DNA from: a bacterium
GTDB taxonomy: Bacteria > UBA8248
Direction: 5' to 3'
Length of the DNA: 64,000 bases
Assembly: GCA_965204535.1 (NCBI GenBank)
Contig: CBDBEV010000001.1
Location: 1,376,001 to 1,440,000, forward strand
Shown here piece by piece: positions 9,635 through 20,790 of the stretch (the stretch's first letter is position 1; the number at the start of each line of letters is the position of its first letter). The notes under the pieces are model-generated. The model ran no database searches. It worked only from the letters and a program-made list of their open reading frames with translations, and was not told the origin of the DNA. The translations under genes were made by a program, and so were the position numbers.

Positions 9635-10257
9635 GCCAGAAGGGCCGCCACGCCGTCATAGATGAAGAAAAGCCCGAATCCGAGCATCACCCACGCGCAG
9701 CCCTGCTCGATTCTCATCCACCCGGTTTCACTGATCATGCGGCTCCCCTGGTTCGACGACCATGTGACGAAGACGGCCCACACCCCGTCCGCCAGCAGGT
9801 GAACGACGGTCATGCCCGCCAGACCGGTCAACCACCCGAATTCGATCGTCCGGGCGATGAGGCTGGCGCCGATCGTGAGCCACCATAAAATCCAGTAGGG
9901 ATTCAGAAGCGTGAGCAAGACGCCGCCGGTGAGAGAATTCCACTCCAGAACGCTTCTTTGCTCTGGCGCGGCGGGCCGGAAACTCCGGAACACGCCGCTT
10001 CCGAGGTAGATGAGGACGCCGCCGCCCAGCAGGGAAACGCCCTCTCGTATCCCCTGGATTTCAAAAAATGGCTGAAGCCCGGCGTAAAGGGCGATGATGA
10101 GCGGGACTTCGGCCAGAGCGTGGCCGAGCGTGACCCGGATTCCCGCCCAGGGGCTTTGCCTGCCGCGCGCGATGAGGAATGCGGTGAGAGGACCCGGCGA
10201 CATGACGCCGCTCAGCGAGATGACGGTGATGAATCCGTAGAATGCGAGCAGGTTCAT
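9631..10257 (-). CDS. LysE-family translocator
   Basis: MSPGP and LLNPYWILWW motifs with about six hydrophobic helices. Confidence 0.85.
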   Translation of the reverse strand: MNLLAFYGFITVISLSGVMSPGPLTAFLIARGRQSPWAGIRVTLGHALAEVPLIIALYAGLQPFFEIQGIREGVSLLGGGVLIYLGSGVFRSFRPAAPEQRSVLEWNSLTGGVLLTLLNPYWILWWLTIGASLIARTIEFGWLTGLAGMTVVHLLADGVWAVFVTWSSNQGSRMISETGWMRIEQGCAWVMLGFGLFFIYDGVAALLA

Positions 10258-10499
10258 GCCTTCGGGTCTGTCTCATCGAGCAGGCGGCGCAATCGCTTGA
10301 TGTCCATATGATATTTGAAGACCTTCGTCTCGCCCAGGTAGCCGACGGGCACCTCCTCGCCGTAGAGGCGGATTAGCTCGGGATCCGTATCTACGTCGAT
10401 CTCTTCGATCGCAAGGTCCGGGAAGTGGCGCATCATCGCCGTTTTCGCCTCGTCGCACAGATGACACTCGTTTCGCGTATAGAGCGTAATTTTGCGCAT
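10254..10499 (-). CDS. Glutaredoxin-like protein (DUF836 type)
   Basis: TLYTRNECHLCDEA (CxxC) and YGEEVPV; 4-bp overlap with the LysE gene. Confidence 0.85.
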   Translation of the reverse strand: MRKITLYTRNECHLCDEAKTAMMRHFPDLAIEEIDVDTDPELIRLYGEEVPVGYLGETKVFKYHMDIKRLRRLLDETDPKA

Positions 10500-12060: not shown

Positions 12061-14631
12061 CTAGCGAGCCGCTTCTTCTACCGTTACCCGAGGGCTGCTG
12101 AGAAGTATTTCCGTTCGACGATTTTTGGCGCGGCCCTCTTCGGTGTCGTTTTTCGCCACCGGGCGGTAAAATGAGTAGCCGGTCGCCGACATGCGTTCAG
12201 GCGATATGTTTTTCGATTCCAGGAACTTGACGATGGCGATAGCGCGCGCGAACGATAGTTCCCAATTCGAAGGATAGCGTCTGAGCAGATTGCCTCTGAT
12301 GGGCCGATTATCCGTATGTCCTTCTACCTGTATTATTTTGTCTTTTTGTTTTCCGAGAAATTCCGCAATCTTAGAGAGCGCCTCGCTTCCCTTTTCCCTG
12401 ATCCTGGCGCTTCCCAGATCAAACAAAAGATTGTTCACGAAGGTCACGCGGAGCAAGTCTTCAGTTCTTCGCAGCGTGATGGATTGTTCCTGTAGCTTGC
12501 TGTCCATCTTCTTCAGGTCTGATTCCAGTTGCTTGGCCCGTTCGGCTTCTTCGCGTGCCCTTTTCTCCAGAACTTTAGAGCGTGCGATTGCCAGCGTGTG
12601 TTTTTTGATCGTTTCCGCCAGGCTCAGGTTTGTCTGATCCAGCTTGTTCCTGATGAGGTCGGCCACGGAGGTTTTCTCCGCGATGAGTTGGCTCATCTCT
12701 TGAACCTGCGCCCGGAGGAGTTCCCTGGCTTTTCCGAGACGGTTTGCCTCTTCGGCCCGCTTTCTTGCGAGTTCGGCGTTTCGGGTCTTTGCTTTTTCCG
12801 CCTCCGTGCGCGTCTTGCGTTCAGTATCGAGAGTTTTCCGGGTTTCTTCGAGCGCGAGTTCGAGGTTCTGGGTTTTGGTTCTTCCCTTTTCGATGGTGGC
12901 GTTTTTCTCCGAGATGAGTCGGCTCATCGCCTGAACCTGGGTATTGAGGATTTCCCTGGTTTTCTCGAGGCGCTTCATCTCCGCGGCCCGGTTTTGCGCG
13001 AGTTCGGTTTTTTGCGCGGTTGATTTCTCGGCCTTAGCCGGCGCCTTGCGCTGACTGGCGACGCTGCGTTTTTTCGCCCTTGCCTGCTCGTCCTTGATGA
13101 GTTGCCCCATCTTTCGGGCCTGGGTCTCGAGAATCTTTCTGACTTGTTCGAGGCGCTTTATCTCTGCGGCCCGTTTTTGGGCGAGTTCGGTGGTATCTTT
13201 ATTTGATTTCTCAACCTTCACCCTTATCTTGCGCTCGGTTTCGAGGGCCGCCTGGATTTGCTTGAGCGCGCGCTCGAGACTTTGGGTTTTTGATTTTTCC
13301 TGTTCGATGTCGGCGCTCTTCTTCGCGATGAGTTGACGCATGATTCCAACCTGGGTCTCGAGGCGCTCTCTGGCTTTTTCGAGACGCTTTATCTCCACGG
13401 CCCGTTCGCTGGCGAGTTTGATGTTCTGCTGACTTGCTTTTTCGGCCTTGGCGCGCATCTTGCGCTCGGCATCGAGGGCCGCCTGGATTTGCTTGAGCTC
13501 GAGTTCGAGTTTTTGAGTTTTTGCTTTTTCCTGCTCGATGTCCGCGCTTTTCATCGCGATGAGTTGGCGCATCCTGCGGACTTGCGTCTGGAGAAGCTCC
13601 CTGACTTTTTCGAGACGCTTCATCTCCCGGGCGCGGGTGCTGGCGAGTTGGACGTTTTGCCGATTTGATTTTTCCATCTCGACCCGCATCTTGCGCTCGT
13701 TCTCGAGCGTGGTCTGGATTTGCCTGAGCGTGCGCTCGAGTTTTTGGGCCTTCGCTTTTTCCTGTTCGATGTCGGCGCTTTTCTCCGCGACGAGCTTGCT
13801 CATCTTTTGAGCCTGTGCCTCGAGTCCTTTTATCTCCTCGGCCCGCGCCTTACGCTCGTTTTCGAGAGTTGCCTCGATTTGCTTGAGCGTACGCTCGATA
13901 TTTTGATTCTTCACCGCCCCTTTCTCGATGTCGGCGCTTTTCTCGGCGATGAGTCGGCTCATCTTTTCAGCCTGGGTCACCAGGCGCTTTACCTCTTCGG
14001 CCCGATTCCCGGCGAGTTGTATGTTTTGTTGATTCGCTTGTTCTGCGTCGGCGCGCATCCTGCGCTCGTTATCGAGGGAGCCATGGATGATGTCGAGCGT
14101 GACTTTGAGGCTTCGGATTTGGGCTTTTCGCTGCTTGATGTCGGCGTTTTTCTCGGTGATGAGCCGGCTCATCTCTTTCGCTTGGGTCTCAAGGCGTTCT
14201 ATGTCTCCCGCCCTCTTGGCGGCGAGCTCGAGATTTTGCTGGTTTGATTTTTCCGTCTCGGCGCGCGTCTTGCGCTCGCTTTCGAGGGCGGTCTGGTTTT
14301 CCTGGAGCGCGGACTCAAGGCCTTGGATTTTCGCTTGGCCTTGCTCGATAGCGGCGTTTTTCTCGGTGACGCGCCTGTCCAGCTCTTCCATTTGTGTCTT
14401 GGCGGAGGCGACCTCTTTTGCGAGCCGGGATCCCAGACTCTTCATCTTCTGGTCTATGTCTTTGAAGCCCTGGATGTCGCTCTTGAGCTTGGCGGAATTC
14501 TCTTTTTCTTTTGAGAGTTCAGCTTCTCTTTGCTGCAGCAGCTCTTTTGTCGATTGGGATTGCTGGGCGAAATATCCTGTCCCGCCGAGCAGAACGGCGA
14601 TAATCGCCCCTATGGAGATGCGAAGCCCCAC
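12061..14631 (-). CDS. Membrane-anchored long coiled-coil repeat protein with a C-terminal OmpA/MotB peptidoglycan-binding domain
   Basis: N-terminal hydrophobic helix; about eight EKxAxIE repeats; C-terminal LFDLGSA, VEGHTDN, SNWELSFARA and NRRTEI. Confidence 0.88.
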   Translation of the reverse strand: MGLRISIGAIIAVLLGGTGYFAQQSQSTKELLQQREAELSKEKENSAKLKSDIQGFKDIDQKMKSLGSRLAKEVASAKTQMEELDRRVTEKNAAIEQGQAKIQGLESALQENQTALESERKTRAETEKSNQQNLELAAKRAGDIERLETQAKEMSRLITEKNADIKQRKAQIRSLKVTLDIIHGSLDNERRMRADAEQANQQNIQLAGNRAEEVKRLVTQAEKMSRLIAEKSADIEKGAVKNQNIERTLKQIEATLENERKARAEEIKGLEAQAQKMSKLVAEKSADIEQEKAKAQKLERTLRQIQTTLENERKMRVEMEKSNRQNVQLASTRAREMKRLEKVRELLQTQVRRMRQLIAMKSADIEQEKAKTQKLELELKQIQAALDAERKMRAKAEKASQQNIKLASERAVEIKRLEKARERLETQVGIMRQLIAKKSADIEQEKSKTQSLERALKQIQAALETERKIRVKVEKSNKDTTELAQKRAAEIKRLEQVRKILETQARKMGQLIKDEQARAKKRSVASQRKAPAKAEKSTAQKTELAQNRAAEMKRLEKTREILNTQVQAMSRLISEKNATIEKGRTKTQNLELALEETRKTLDTERKTRTEAEKAKTRNAELARKRAEEANRLGKARELLRAQVQEMSQLIAEKTSVADLIRNKLDQTNLSLAETIKKHTLAIARSKVLEKRAREEAERAKQLESDLKKMDSKLQEQSITLRRTEDLLRVTFVNNLLFDLGSARIREKGSEALSKIAEFLGKQKDKIIQVEGHTDNRPIRGNLLRRYPSNWELSFARAIAIVKFLESKNISPERMSATGYSFYRPVAKNDTEEGRAKNRRTEILLSSPRVTVEEAAR

Positions 14632-16361: not shown

Positions 16362-17606
16362 ATGCCGAAACCCAAAGTGATTATCCAGCTGTATCCCATG
16401 CTGCCGACGGAAAACCGGGAGGAGCGCGAGCAGAAACGTCCCCTGGCCAGGGACAAGGACTTGTACCATCACGTGCTTCACGAATGGACGGACATCGTGA
16501 AGGCCGCCGATGAGATGGGTGTCTGGGGCATCAGCACCATCGAGCACCACCTGCATTCGGAGGGTTATGAGGTTGGGCCGAACCCGGGCGTTCTCAACGC
16601 TTGGTGGGCGAATCATGTCAAGAATGCGCGGGTGGGCGCGCTCGGTTACGTCATGGCGACTCAGGATCCGATTCGCGTGGCCGAGGAGACGGCCATCCTC
16701 GATCACATCACCAAGGGGAAGTTCTTCTGCGGCCTGGCGCGCGGATATCAGTCCAGATGGTCGAACGTCCTGGGGCAGTTCAGCGACACCCGGGCCACCG
16801 TCTCCGACGCCCTCGGCGGGGCCGACGACGTGAAGAACCGGGACATCTTCGAAGAGCGCGTCGAGATGCTCCTGAAATTCTGGCAGGAAGATTCGGTGGA
16901 AGTGAAGGGGAATTACTACGAGATTCCCTACCCGTATGAAGAGGGCATCGATTACCCGGCCTGGAAGAGCGCCCGGGACGCCGGCGCAATCGGCGAGATC
17001 GGCGACGACAATCGGGTGCGAAGGGTGAGCGTCGTGCCCAAACCCTATCAGGAGCCTTATCCGCCCGTGTTCCAGGCCGTGAGCGCGAGCCCCGATTCCA
17101 TCAAATTCGCCGCAAGAAACGGTTTCCGGCCCGTGTATTTCACCAAACTGGAAAAGATGGAAGAATTCTCCCACCTCTACGTGGAAGAAGCAGCCAAGGC
17201 GGGCCACAACTTCGCACATGGCGAGCGGCAGTGCGTCTGCCGTTGGATTCATGTGACGGACACCGAAGAAGAGTACGACGAGAAGCTCAAGAACTACGAT
17301 CAGGATATCTACCAGAACTTCTACGTGCCCTTCTTCCCGCAGTTCCCCGACGACACGGAGAGCATCGACTGGATCCAGAACATCAAGGAAAGCGGCATCT
17401 TCCTGGGTGGTCCGGTGGACAAGCTCAAGCAAGAATGGGAGGAAACGTACGAGAAAGTGCCTTCCGAGTTCATTACTCTCATCTGGCACTACGCGCAGTG
17501 CCCCAAGGAAGAGGTTATTTATGAGCTTGAGACGTTTATGACGAAAGTCTGGCCCGACCTCGAGTGTCCGGTGTCGAATGGCGTCACGGTCGGCGGCGTC
17601 GCCTGA
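16362..17606 (+). CDS. LLM-class (luciferase-like) flavin-dependent oxidoreductase
   Basis: IEHH, DPIRVAEETAILDHITKG, ARGYQ and PKPYQEPYPP. Confidence 0.9.
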   Translation: MPKPKVIIQLYPMLPTENREEREQKRPLARDKDLYHHVLHEWTDIVKAADEMGVWGISTIEHHLHSEGYEVGPNPGVLNAWWANHVKNARVGALGYVMATQDPIRVAEETAILDHITKGKFFCGLARGYQSRWSNVLGQFSDTRATVSDALGGADDVKNRDIFEERVEMLLKFWQEDSVEVKGNYYEIPYPYEEGIDYPAWKSARDAGAIGEIGDDNRVRRVSVVPKPYQEPYPPVFQAVSASPDSIKFAARNGFRPVYFTKLEKMEEFSHLYVEEAAKAGHNFAHGERQCVCRWIHVTDTEEEYDEKLKNYDQDIYQNFYVPFFPQFPDDTESIDWIQNIKESGIFLGGPVDKLKQEWEETYEKVPSEFITLIWHYAQCPKEEVIYELETFMTKVWPDLECPVSNGVTVGGVA

Positions 17607-17621
17607 TTTTTGTTGACGATG

Positions 17622-17650
17622 AAGCCCCCGCATTCACGTGCGGGGGTTTT
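17622..17650 (+). terminator. Rho-independent terminator-like hairpin after the LLM gene
   Basis: cccccgca/tgcggggg stem followed by TTTT. Confidence 0.6.
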
Positions 17651-17675
17651 GCATAACGTTTTTGAGGAGACGAGC

Positions 17676-18389
17676 ATGTATGAAATCATCGATCTGAGCC
17701 AGGAGATCTACACCGGCGCGCCCAGGTTTCCCGGGCACCCGGCGACGGAAATCGAATACGTCGCCCGGCACGAAGACGCAGCCAATGCGCCGATCAAGCC
17801 GAAGGACATCACATACGCCGCCATGATGCTTCACATGTGCGATCACGGCCCGACGCATACCGATTCGGTCAGCCACATCGATGAGCGTGAAACGGCGCCC
17901 AATATCGATCAGGCGCCGCTCGAATGGTTCATCACACGGGCGATTGCGCTCGATTTCACGGGCAAGGTGGGGCCGATGGAAGAAATTTCCCTGCAATTGT
18001 TACAGGACGAGCTTTCGGCGGCGAACCTCGCACCCCCCAAAGACGGCACGTTCCTCTTCACGGGGGGGCATTTCAAGCGCACCTATCCGACGGATGATTA
18101 CCTCACAACGTACCCGGGTCTGGGTTACGACGCCGCGAATTTTCTGTATCGCGAATGCGGCGTGGTGAACATCGGCCAGGATGCGCCGAGCATCGATGCC
18201 GGCGTGAACACCACGGAGATGACGTTCCCCTGCCATGTGCTTTGCCGGGAACTTCAGCGCCACAACACGGAAAATCTCGCGAATGTGGAAGCGGTGGGGG
18301 GGAAGGAATTTCTCTATGTGGGGCTTCCGCTCAAGATTCGCGCGGGCACCGGCTCTCCCATACGGGCCGTCGCCGTCATGAACCTTTAA
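17676..18389 (+). CDS. Cyclase (kynurenine formamidase-like) family metal-dependent hydrolase
   Basis: IIDLSQ, HGPTHTD, ENLAN and PLKIRAGTGSPIRAVA; start set at ATG 17676 after GAGGAG. Confidence 0.9.
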   Translation: MYEIIDLSQEIYTGAPRFPGHPATEIEYVARHEDAANAPIKPKDITYAAMMLHMCDHGPTHTDSVSHIDERETAPNIDQAPLEWFITRAIALDFTGKVGPMEEISLQLLQDELSAANLAPPKDGTFLFTGGHFKRTYPTDDYLTTYPGLGYDAANFLYRECGVVNIGQDAPSIDAGVNTTEMTFPCHVLCRELQRHNTENLANVEAVGGKEFLYVGLPLKIRAGTGSPIRAVAVMNL

Positions 18390-18512
18390 TAAAGCGGGGA
18401 AATCTTCGTCTTTGCCATGCGTTAGTCGGAGGCGGGCATTCCCCGAATCGCTTTGCCGCCGTCATGGTTTTTGAGCGAGAGGGTTTCTCGGTTTGTGAGG
18501 AGATTTCAAGAC

Positions 18513-18863
18513 ATGCCCAAGACAGTGGATTGGTACTACCATCGCTCCGGCTGAAAGACCTGCGCCAAAACGCAAGCGTTTCTTGCGGAAAATGGAATCG
18601 AGGTATCCGAGCAGGCCAGTTCCAGAAAAGACGTGGTGGATGAGAACAACGTCGATTCGCTTCTGGACGGCGTGACGGACGTCTATTCGACCAGGAGCAG
18701 GAAGGTCATTCACCTGGATATCAAAAAAGCGAACCCTGCGCGCGAAGACGTGCTGGCGCTTTTGATGGGCCGCTCGGGCACGCTCAGGGCGCCGGTCATC
18801 AAACATCGCAGCGCCCTCATCGTCGGCTTCGACGCGGAAACGTATTCACAGGTTTTGACGTAA
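18513..18863 (+). CDS. ArsC-family/thioredoxin-fold selenoprotein (UxxC), 116 aa
   Basis: GAGGAG then ATG 18513 gives MPKTVDWYYHRSG-U(TGA 18552-18554)-KTCAKTQAFL, in frame with the 18633-18863 ORF that contains GTLRAP...IVGF. Confidence 0.88.
18571..18587 (+). promoter_or_regulatory. Candidate bacterial SECIS for the ArsC-like gene
   Basis: CGCAAG-CGTTT-CTTGCG hairpin; the loop begins 22 nt after the UGA and has G at position 2. Confidence 0.65.
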
Positions 18864-18879
18864 ATCTTCTCTGGGTGTC

Positions 18880-20334
18880 TCAGAGGGCCAACTGGCCCTC
18901 GGTGGGTTCCGCTCAGCAGAACCACGATTCGGTCAAACGGGGCGGGCGGATTCGGTCGGGCGCGAAGGCGGCCTTTGGCTGCTCTTGATCGGGGCGTTCG
19001 AGAACCTCGGCCGCCAATTCGCGAATCCTCGCAAAAGTCACGGCGGCGTCCTCTTGGCGAGTGGCAGCGTCCTCCACGAGAGTGAGCGCCTCCTGGTGCA
19101 GCTTGTCCATTCGCGCGTCGGGATGCGCCCAGCGGTAGATGAAATTCTCGGCGTCGAGTTCGGTGATGTATCTCTTCATGTGGGGGGAGTCGAGTAAATG
19201 GGAACCCGGCGGCACCAGTAGCCGGATGGCCATCTGAATCGGGTCGACCTCGTCGATCAAGGCGTTTTCTTCAATGAAATCAAGCAAGTCGAAATAATCC
19301 TGCGCGCTTGTCCACGGCGTGAATGCGACCAGAGACGGCCTGATGGAAACGCGCGCCTCCCGGGCGGCTTTCACGACGCGGAAGACGTCCTCCCTGTTGT
19401 GCCCTTTTACCAGATGACCAAGGACGAGGTCGCTCAGAGACTCCACCGCGGTAATGATAAACGCGCATCCGTTATCTCTAAACTCCGGCAGAAGCTCCTC
19501 GTGCTTGATGAGGTGCTCGACCTTGGCCGTGAAGTCGAAGGTGAGCGAGGGAAACCGCTCGTGCATGGCGCGGGCGACCCGGAGCGCATGAGCGGGGCCG
19601 TTCAGGAAATCCGGGTCCGCAAAGGTGATGTGGCGCGCGCCTTGCGCCGCCAGGTCTTCGATGTCTTCCAGAACTTTGTCCTGCGGCACGACGAAGAAAC
19701 GGCCCTCATACACCGGCGGAATGGGGCAATGGAGGCACAAGTGCTTGCAGCCTCGGCTCGCTTCGACGGCGCCCGCAGGATAATGCTGCCCCTCCTTCAC
19801 GAGATGGGCGTATGCCTGAAGCGCGGGCAATCCTTCCCGGTCAGGTTTGAGCAGGGGGATTTTTTCGAGATACGGGCCGGATGTTCGCTCTCTCGTGGCC
19901 GCGCCGGCTACTTCAATGTTCCCCGAGGCTTGGGACAGTTCTTGAACGAGCCTCACGAGCGGAAGCTCGAACTCACCGCCGATCGCCGAATCCCCGCCGT
20001 TCTCAAGCAGATAGCCCTTGTTGAGCAGGCCGTATAGGCCATAGAAACAGATGTGGCACCCCGGGTTCGCCTCGCGTACTTTCGCCGCGACTTCCACGCC
20101 GAGCCTGAGCGCGGTGTGCATCGGTACGCTGATGCCGACGAATTTGGCATTTTCGATTTTTTGTGGGGAGAAGTCCTCCGCCGCAACGTCCATCGCCCGG
20201 GGACGAAAGCCCGCTTTGCGCAAAAAAGCCAGGGGCGAGGCGACGGCCAGGGGCTGGTGACCCAACTCGTAACACGAGACGAGGACGACGGCGCCGGGCG
20301 CTCGCCACTCCGAAGCCTTATCGGTTCGGTTCAC
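18880..20334 (-). CDS. B12-binding radical SAM selenoprotein with a CUAEP tail
   Basis: CKHLCLHC motif and an N-terminal cobalamin-binding-like domain. Reading through TGA 18915-18913 gives ...LTESWFC-U-AEPTEGQLAL* with the stop at 18882-18880. Start is uncertain (GTG 20334 versus ATG 20376). Confidence 0.88.
18883..18900 (-). promoter_or_regulatory. Candidate bacterial SECIS for the radical SAM gene
   Basis: GAGGGCC-AGTT-GGCCCTC hairpin starting 12 nt after the UGA, with G at loop position 2. Confidence 0.75.
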
Positions 20335-20356
20335 GGCGAAATCTCTCGTTCGGCAC

Positions 20357-20388
20357 AAAAAAAGCCCCGGGCGCATGATGCCCGGGGC
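20357..20388 (-). terminator. Rho-independent terminator after the iscA/erpA-like gene
   Basis: gccccgggc/gcccggggc stem followed by seven U on the minus strand. Confidence 0.8.
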
Positions 20389-20406: not shown

Positions 20407-20790
20407 TCACGTAGTGAACGATTTTCCGCAGCCGCACATGCCCATGGCGTTGGGGTTGTTGATCTTGAAGCCCGAGCCCTGGAGGCTGTCGATGAAGTCG
20501 ATTTCCGTGCCCGCGATGACGGGATAACTCTGGGGGTCCACGAACACGTCGAAGCCATCGGCGGAGAACACTTTATCCTCGGGGTTGGCGGATTCCTCGA
20601 AATACAGGCCATAGTTGTAACCCGAGCAACCGCCGGCGGTGACGGCCAGCCTGAGGCCGTGGCCGCTCTTGCCTTCCGCCTCGAGAATCTCGGCGACCTT
20701 CTTGTTGGCGAGCGGCGTAACCGTAATGCCTTCAAGGGCTTGGGGTTTCTTTTGGGACTGATCGAACAGCGTGACCGTTCCATCCGACAT
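20407..20790 (-). CDS. HesB/IscA/ErpA family Fe-S cluster carrier
   Basis: GGCSG, GFKINNPNA and CGCGKSF. Confidence 0.95.
   Translation of the reverse strand: MSDGTVTLFDQSQKKPQALEGITVTPLANKKVAEILEAEGKSGHGLRLAVTAGGCSGYNYGLYFEESANPEDKVFSADGFDVFVDPQSYPVIAGTEIDFIDSLQGSGFKINNPNAMGMCGCGKSFTT

Follow-up and report, generated by a model that had tools for sequence, protein, structure and literature searches.

A conserved selenoprotein gene of the ArsC-related family NF041106 in a UBA8248 bacterium, with a putative role as a selenol/thiol oxidoreductase

The 64,000-nt stretch of DNA analysed here (the window) carries, at 18513–18863 on the plus strand, a real and conserved selenoprotein gene of an already catalogued family. 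With its single in-frame TGA read as selenocysteine (U), the gene encodes a protein of 116 residues with a U14-x-x-C17 motif and an RAP motif at positions 92–94, and this read-through product scores 119.7 bits (cut-off 85) over profile positions 1–107 of the NCBIfam model NF041106, "ArsC family (seleno)protein" (ArsC_rel_Se_1). The protein is likely a redox enzyme and not an arsenic detoxifier, and "ArsC" should be read as a label of its fold, not of its activity.

The reading frame opens with an ATG at 18513 and closes with a TAA at 18861–18863, and the TGA of codon 14 (18552–18554) is its sole internal stop. A Shine–Dalgarno-like AGGAG (18498–18502) lies 10 nt 5′ of the ATG, and a purine-rich GGAG or GAGG precedes the ATG in relatives of the same genus. 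Gene callers report a 76-residue ORF in this region (18633–18863, plus strand), which starts from a GTG 120 nt downstream in the same frame and lacks the active site. The initial annotation had proposed a strong ribosome binding site and an upstream ATG for this ORF, with a TGA in place of the first Cys of a CxxC as the only interruption; both features are found as described, and translation places U14-K-T-C17 near the N-terminus in the context HRSG-U-KTC. Two shadow ORFs over the gene (18462–18806, minus strand; 18155–18643, plus strand) were set aside because selection matches the ArsC-like frame.

Comparison with related genomes makes it almost certain that this conserved UGA encodes selenocysteine. 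The Sec machinery on which the initial reading depended is present: profile searches located selA, selB and selD above their cut-offs, selD carrying a TGA of its own, and a tRNA-Sec (tRNA-SeC) is found at C2:1945499. All 22 other genomes of the genus carry the gene with one TGA, and at the level of the phylum matches that pass the cut-off occur in 33 of 51 genomes, with one TGA in all 34 of these matches. The best 80 of 457 metagenome loci are all of the TGA form, a set that is biased in this direction as it was picked by peptide pattern and likeness. Homologues also align 5′ of the TGA, where W7 and R11 are invariant in 135 alignment rows, and residue 14 is mostly Cys or TGA, as had been anticipated: 106 of 120 database homologues show CxxC at the Sec position, with Trp in 11, Leu in one and two sequences truncated. 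The Trp residues (P0052, P0054, P0059, P0062, P0085, P0092, P0093, P0100, P0112, P0113 and P0132) are probably due to TGA translated under another genetic code.

A sample comprising 201 genomes from the phylum of one Planctomycete record, contained both forms of the gene. Matches were obtained in 54 genomes, 46 with the TGA form, seven Cys-only and one partial, and selB was found in 44 of the 46 TGA-form genomes versus two of the seven Cys-only ones (Fisher p 1.4e-4, overstated since kin are not independent). In a tree of 83 rows, built by a quick method, Sec and Cys forms interleave with 12 changes, at least three of them forced by strong branches and their direction not readable. One genome (G123) holds two copies, one with the TGA and the other (L165, G123:C12:140623-140940) with a non-Cys residue at the first redox position (QRSSDATC).

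The hairpin at 18571–18587 on the plus strand is attributed to a bacterial SECIS element on the basis of conservation, covariation and model constraints. Following a 16-nt spacer after the TGA, the arms CGCAAG (18571–18576) and CUUGCG (18582–18587) form a 6-bp stem around the loop CGUUU, in line with the hairpin with a G-containing loop that had been noticed from the sequence at this spacing. The bSECIS model of PMC13188914 describes a loop of 3–9 nt, a stem of 4–16 bp, a G in the first two loop positions, a spacing of 16–37 nt and an MFE ≤ −7.5; the element in the window has 6 bp, a 5-nt loop at a spacing of 22 nt from the UGA and an MFE of −9.2 kcal/mol once the lower stem is included (−5.7 for the bare hairpin). 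Stability as proof of a SECIS was rejected, as the z-scores against shuffles are near zero (−0.33 to −0.64, at −9.2 kcal/mol including the lower stem) and 304 of 1500 random window positions yield a model-conforming hairpin at −5 or better, i.e. 20% satisfy a loose model.

The hairpin is beyond chance by conservation, not by stability. Across 20 genus genes, codons 20–25 show zero synonymous or non-synonymous differences (pS 0.000), with pS of 0.31–0.39 in the flanks. In 110 of 112 distinct TGA genes, CTT encodes the Leu of the 3′ arm, versus 6% elsewhere in the same genes; the Gln of the 5′ arm is encoded by CAA in 95, versus 12% elsewhere, and otherwise by CAG, with which a G-U pair is retained. 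No gene of the 112 lacks the loop G. Over 96 distinct segments 87% of cells are paired, as compared to 22–59% in slid controls, and two-sided changes occur at three of the six pairs (12 cells), a result matched by none of 500 shuffles. A model-conforming hairpin at the same place is absent from nine of 22 Planctomycete TGA genes (L145, L148, L149, L150, L156, L158, L160, L164 and L166), and these may use a different SECIS. None of the seven Cys forms in that sample has a hairpin better than −5.3, and Rfam at gathering threshold returned only a single tRNA over the window.

That the TGA is instead a true stop, leaving a pseudogene or the 76-residue ORF as the only translated product, is extremely improbable. 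Gene callers do report forms of 75–86 residues throughout the database, and the hairpin is weak taken alone. Nonetheless, the TGA is fixed across the genus, the phylum and other phyla, and the codons 5′ of it are under purifying selection: pN/pS, computed over 20 genus genes of equal length, is 0.23 for codons 2–13, 0.32 for codons 15–40 and 0.24 for the called ORF. Moreover, the GTG at 18633 is not conserved, being replaced by ACG, GTA, GCT or GCG in relatives, and the short form, devoid of the active site, reaches 62.4 bits against NF041106 and thus falls under the cut-off of 85. An assembled contig is identical over 17665–20163 (0 differences), and may stem from the source sample.

The family itself is on record, which makes the gene small as a discovery, its motif and recoding being already catalogued. 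The statement in the initial annotation that ArsC-like selenoproteins of ill-defined function exist is borne out by the curated family NF041106, whose function is given as uncharacterised. A protein of this type is listed as "Arsenate reductase-like protein" with a UxxC motif in a 2026 catalogue (PMC13188914), which traces the family to the "Arsenate reductase 2" of Zhang and Gladyshev 2008 (PMC2398784; UxxC, 42 sequences). A search of the freely readable literature (main texts) for functional studies of NF041106, CUAEP or arsenate reductase-like selenoproteins returned only catalogues. All 135 rows of the family alignment match NF041106, and besides W7 and R11 the residues C17, G86, R92, A93, P94 and G105 are invariant; the first redox position is Cys or Sec in 91% of rows, and position 61, at the tip of a predicted β-hairpin, is K or R in all of them. 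The protein in the window shares the UxxC motif and Cys homologues of the family, and differs from its norm in lineage details only, with Arg87 in place of Pro (94%) and Ser62 in place of Gly (99%), and in a net charge of +1 against a family median of +6. The wide reach of the family rests on a word-based search and the Atlas, in which ArsC-domain and glutaredoxin-domain clusters were reached, none with known function.

AlphaFold2 predictions for the window protein and for a natural Cys form are consistent with each other (pLDDT 88.6 and 92.9). Both show a thioredoxin-like core with an insert composed of a helix, a β-hairpin (56–61, 64–69) and a further helix, and U14-x-x-C17 is predicted at the start of helix 1 with Pro94 at the usual cis-Pro position. 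Foldseek matched the chains of Spx, YffB and ArsC-related proteins with TM values of about 0.55, and VIA-align placed YffB, ArsC-related, Spx and glutaredoxin/NrdH chains in a tie at Z 7.4–8.8 (for example 3gkx_B, Z 8.8, rmsd 3.0, 90 aligned). The YffB and ArsC-related structures (PDB 1rw1, 2kok, 3gkx) resemble the window protein in size and core fold (Z 8.2–8.8); they are without the ArsC arginine triad and are proposed thiol reductases. Within the fold lists of Foldseek and VIA-align, none of the solved structures had this hairpin insert; a structure of this kind may still exist outside those lists. According to PMC3169414, YffB contains only one Cys and its insert is entirely helical, in contrast to the U/CxxC and predicted hairpin of the present family.

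In light of these features we consider it fairly probable that the protein is a stand-alone, glutaredoxin-like selenol/thiol oxidoreductase, a putative function for which the following sequence of events can be envisaged. By analogy with established Sec biology, SelB carrying Sec-tRNA would, with near certainty, recognise the hairpin located 22 nt beyond the UGA, leading to insertion of Sec14. The Sec14 selenolate would then attack oxidised sulfur, for instance a disulfide, borne by an anionic substrate or partner protein, in an active site lined by the conserved H10, R11, K/R19 and R92, and Cys17 would resolve the adduct to give a selenenylsulfide. The basic β-hairpin (56–69) may pick the partner, and a cellular reductase would recycle the enzyme. 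Outside the host's bacterial family the neighbours differ from locus to locus, with no conserved functional neighbourhood among the loci compared, which fits a redoxin of general use. Glutathione binding is reported for the related YffB, which has been proposed as a thiol reductase (PMC3169414). Glutathione as reductant is unsupported here, because the best match to glutathione synthetase in the genome scores 82.4 bits against a cut-off of 299. A counter-point to the oxidoreductase reading is that regulators, the Spx proteins, are the closest in sequence among solved structures.

Two alternative functions of a genuine selenoprotein were weighed against this oxidoreductase reading. A true arsenate reductase, converting As(V) to As(III) via Sec14, is unlikely. 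The Pfam ArsC domain (PF03960) is matched at 31.5 bits (cut-off 24), as the sole match to this model in the genome, and an oxyanion-binding site could be built from a His and a Thr near the nucleophile plus several conserved basic residues; in addition, the product of the neighbouring radical SAM gene is homologous to the arsenic-handling ArsL, an arsinothricin enzyme (316.7 bits, below the cut-off of 450). The glutaredoxin-dependent E. coli ArsC shares PF03960, the core fold and a His four residues before the nucleophile with the window protein. However, the ArsC catalytic motif HX3CX3R (PMC3169414) is absent, the corresponding segment reading H10-x3-U14-x3-A18, with G, A, K, Q or S in column 18 and Arg not among the commonest residues, and a second Cys is present. 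E. coli ArsC chains align in VIA-align at lower Z (6.2–6.3) than YffB and Spx, and TIGR00014 gave no match at E 0.01. Judged by motif position, the probable counterparts of the ArsC arginine triad (R60, R94 and R107) are the basic R61, the invariant Ala93 before Pro, and a GF where ArsC has its C-terminal Arg motif. Neither acr3 nor arsB was found in the 95.7%-complete genome, and the 91 of 106 neighbour representatives that were scanned contain one aquaporin-family gene and no ArsB, Acr3, ArsR or ArsM, the remaining 15 comprising chiefly short sequences together with the radical SAM gene. Classic ArsC activity is thus unlikely, given the lack of HX3CX3R and the outcome of the searches for arsenite pumps in the genome and for ars genes among the scanned neighbour representatives.

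Slightly less improbable, albeit still doubtful, is a selenoprotein acting like Spx, i.e. a redox switch on the RNA polymerase α-CTD and promoter DNA that controls thiol-stress genes. The top PDB sequence matches are Spx proteins (E 7e-6; 6.5e-10 with a profile), and alignment of the window segment DGVTDVYSTRSRK with Spx DGTDEIISTRSK places G53 and R61 on Spx G52 and R60, the residues reported as needed for α-CTD binding and activation (PMC2801614). Spx/MgsR (TIGR01617; PDB 1z3e, 3gfk, 7f75) shares the thioredoxin-like core with an insert, a CxxC-type centre at helix 1, on whose C10-x-x-C13 the UxxC of the window protein aligns, and the basic R60 position. The gene is single copy per genome with neighbours that are not fixed, position 61 is basic in 135 of 135 rows, and the median net charge of +6 fits as well. 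Conversely, TIGR01617 scores 49.4 bits against a cut-off of 75.05, and the Spx equivalogs 24–35 bits against cut-offs of 123–159. The column equivalent to G52 is Gly in just 24% of the family, Spx R92 before the cis-Pro corresponds to the invariant Ala93 in 135 rows, with the invariant Arg one residue earlier, and the window protein differs from Spx in carrying Sec and in lacking the Spx C-terminal extension (116 vs. 131 residues). Moreover, both models show the basic β-hairpin where Spx has helix α4 (TM about 0.55), and the solved inserts of YffB and Spx are described as helical (PMC3169414, PMC2801614). A complex prediction for a natural Cys-form member (G251) with the α-CTD of its own genome scored 0.00 twice (mark 0.32); the controls were not folded, and the outcome speaks neither for nor against the interaction. 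It is likewise unlikely that NF041106 represents a non-Firmicutes, selenium-based analogue of Spx, in which a U14–C17 bond would control contacts of the basic β-hairpin with RNA polymerase or DNA; if true, NF041106 would be a selenoprotein transcription regulator spread over several phyla. Taken together, the function of the family is narrowed to something other than classic ArsC and, by cut-off, other than Spx, with a predicted β-hairpin insert absent from the solved relatives compared here; this singles out concrete residues for functional study. Separately, a second UxxC selenoprotein of YffB/Spx-like type (WSST-U-GTC, FIRRP motif) was observed at L033:1483-1827 and L034:1483-1827 (both minus strand) in genomes G027 and G028; it scores 39 and 32 bits against NF041106, far under the cut-off, and its motif is nearer to Spx than is that of NF041106.

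Downstream, on the minus strand, lies a gene for a CUAEP-tail radical SAM selenoprotein (18880–20376; 498 residues from the longest start), assigned to NF040546 (CUAEP/CCAEP-tail radical SAM (seleno)protein) by a score of 668.3 bits (cut-off 500) and the tail WFC-U-AEPT. The ORF as called ends at 18913, and reading through the in-frame TGA (18913–18915) extends it to 18880 with the tail ESWFC-U-AEPTEGQLAL. Two mis-called genes are thereby corrected, one of which had lost its active site and the other its CU tail. The TGA is kept in 23 of 23 genus loci and in L053, and 32 of 32 radical SAM matches among 41 genomes contain one TGA. A SECIS-like hairpin, GAGGGCC AGUU GGCCCUC, is found at 18883–18900 on the same strand (−15.1 kcal/mol, z −2.41). 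The CUAEP-tail radical SAM family is termed uncharacterised in bioRxiv 10.1101/2022.07.06.499078.

The radical SAM stop lies 16 nt from that of the ArsC-like gene. Across the genus (23 of 23 genomes) the opposed stops are separated by 15–33 nt, in L053 by 17 nt, and the two genes also adjoin in L051 and L052. Other families of the phylum have the two genes unlinked or only one of them, and none of the remaining loci that were read has them side by side; the tail-to-tail pairing is thus a local gene order, seen only in the host's bacterial family. It is quite unlikely, more so than either alternative function above, that the ArsC-like protein is a dedicated redox partner of the adjacent radical SAM selenoenzyme. 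Such a partnership would agree with the arrangement in the genus and in L051, L052 and L053, which represent two other genera of the family, and with both genes encoding selenoproteins. Convergent genes, however, have no common transcript; one genome of the phylum (G032) has the two genes 440 kb apart, another (G026) has the ArsC-like gene alone, and five (G023, G024, G029, G030 and G033) have the radical SAM match alone, and a radical SAM match is adjacent in none of 78 non-genus metagenome loci (many of them short) and none of the 29 Planctomycete loci that were read. Because the radical SAM SECIS is near-palindromic, a plus-strand hairpin is possible as well, 20 nt past the ArsC-like stop, which might end or protect the ArsC-like mRNA; ArsC-like transcripts running on would lie antisense to the radical SAM UGA and SECIS.

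On the 5′ side, the ArsC-like gene is preceded on the same strand by luciferase-like monooxygenase and cyclase-family genes (16362–18389), a pair conserved within the genus and also at two further loci from the phylum. A promoter and terminator scan identified no site at the ArsC-like gene, its counts being near shuffle levels. Three RNA runs contained just 4% of the sequence words, and in one of these a 447-nt contig of a relative spans 18458–18790 with 44 differences over 333 nt; contigs cannot show transcription. This contig from an RNA library joins the end of the cyclase gene to the ArsC-like gene, a weak hint that the two genes form one operon.

On the scale of the genome, a crude scan for TGA-plus-hairpin arrangements produced 144 candidates, mostly noise, some 20–30 of which look like real selenoproteins in families. 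Presumably these include recurrent G-U-GSCT UxxC genes (C1:354864, C1:1005360, C2:981259, C2:1196284, C2:2318793, C2:2692700) and what we take to be AhpD-like CxxU genes (C2:819171, C2:1075139, C2:1221504, C2:1767824, C2:695168, C2:2805867). The host lineage seems rich in selenoproteins, and BSepDB places three UBA8248 genomes among the ten richest (PMC13326102). Elsewhere in the window, an IscA/ErpA-type Fe–S carrier gene (20407–20790, minus strand) sits ahead of the radical SAM gene in the same orientation, and a DUF836 glutaredoxin-like gene with a CxxC motif is found nearby (10254–10499, minus strand). The minus-strand gene at 12061–14631 encodes an 856-residue protein whose length varies among relatives; it combines an extended, repetitive coiled-coil region with an OmpA domain at the C-terminus.
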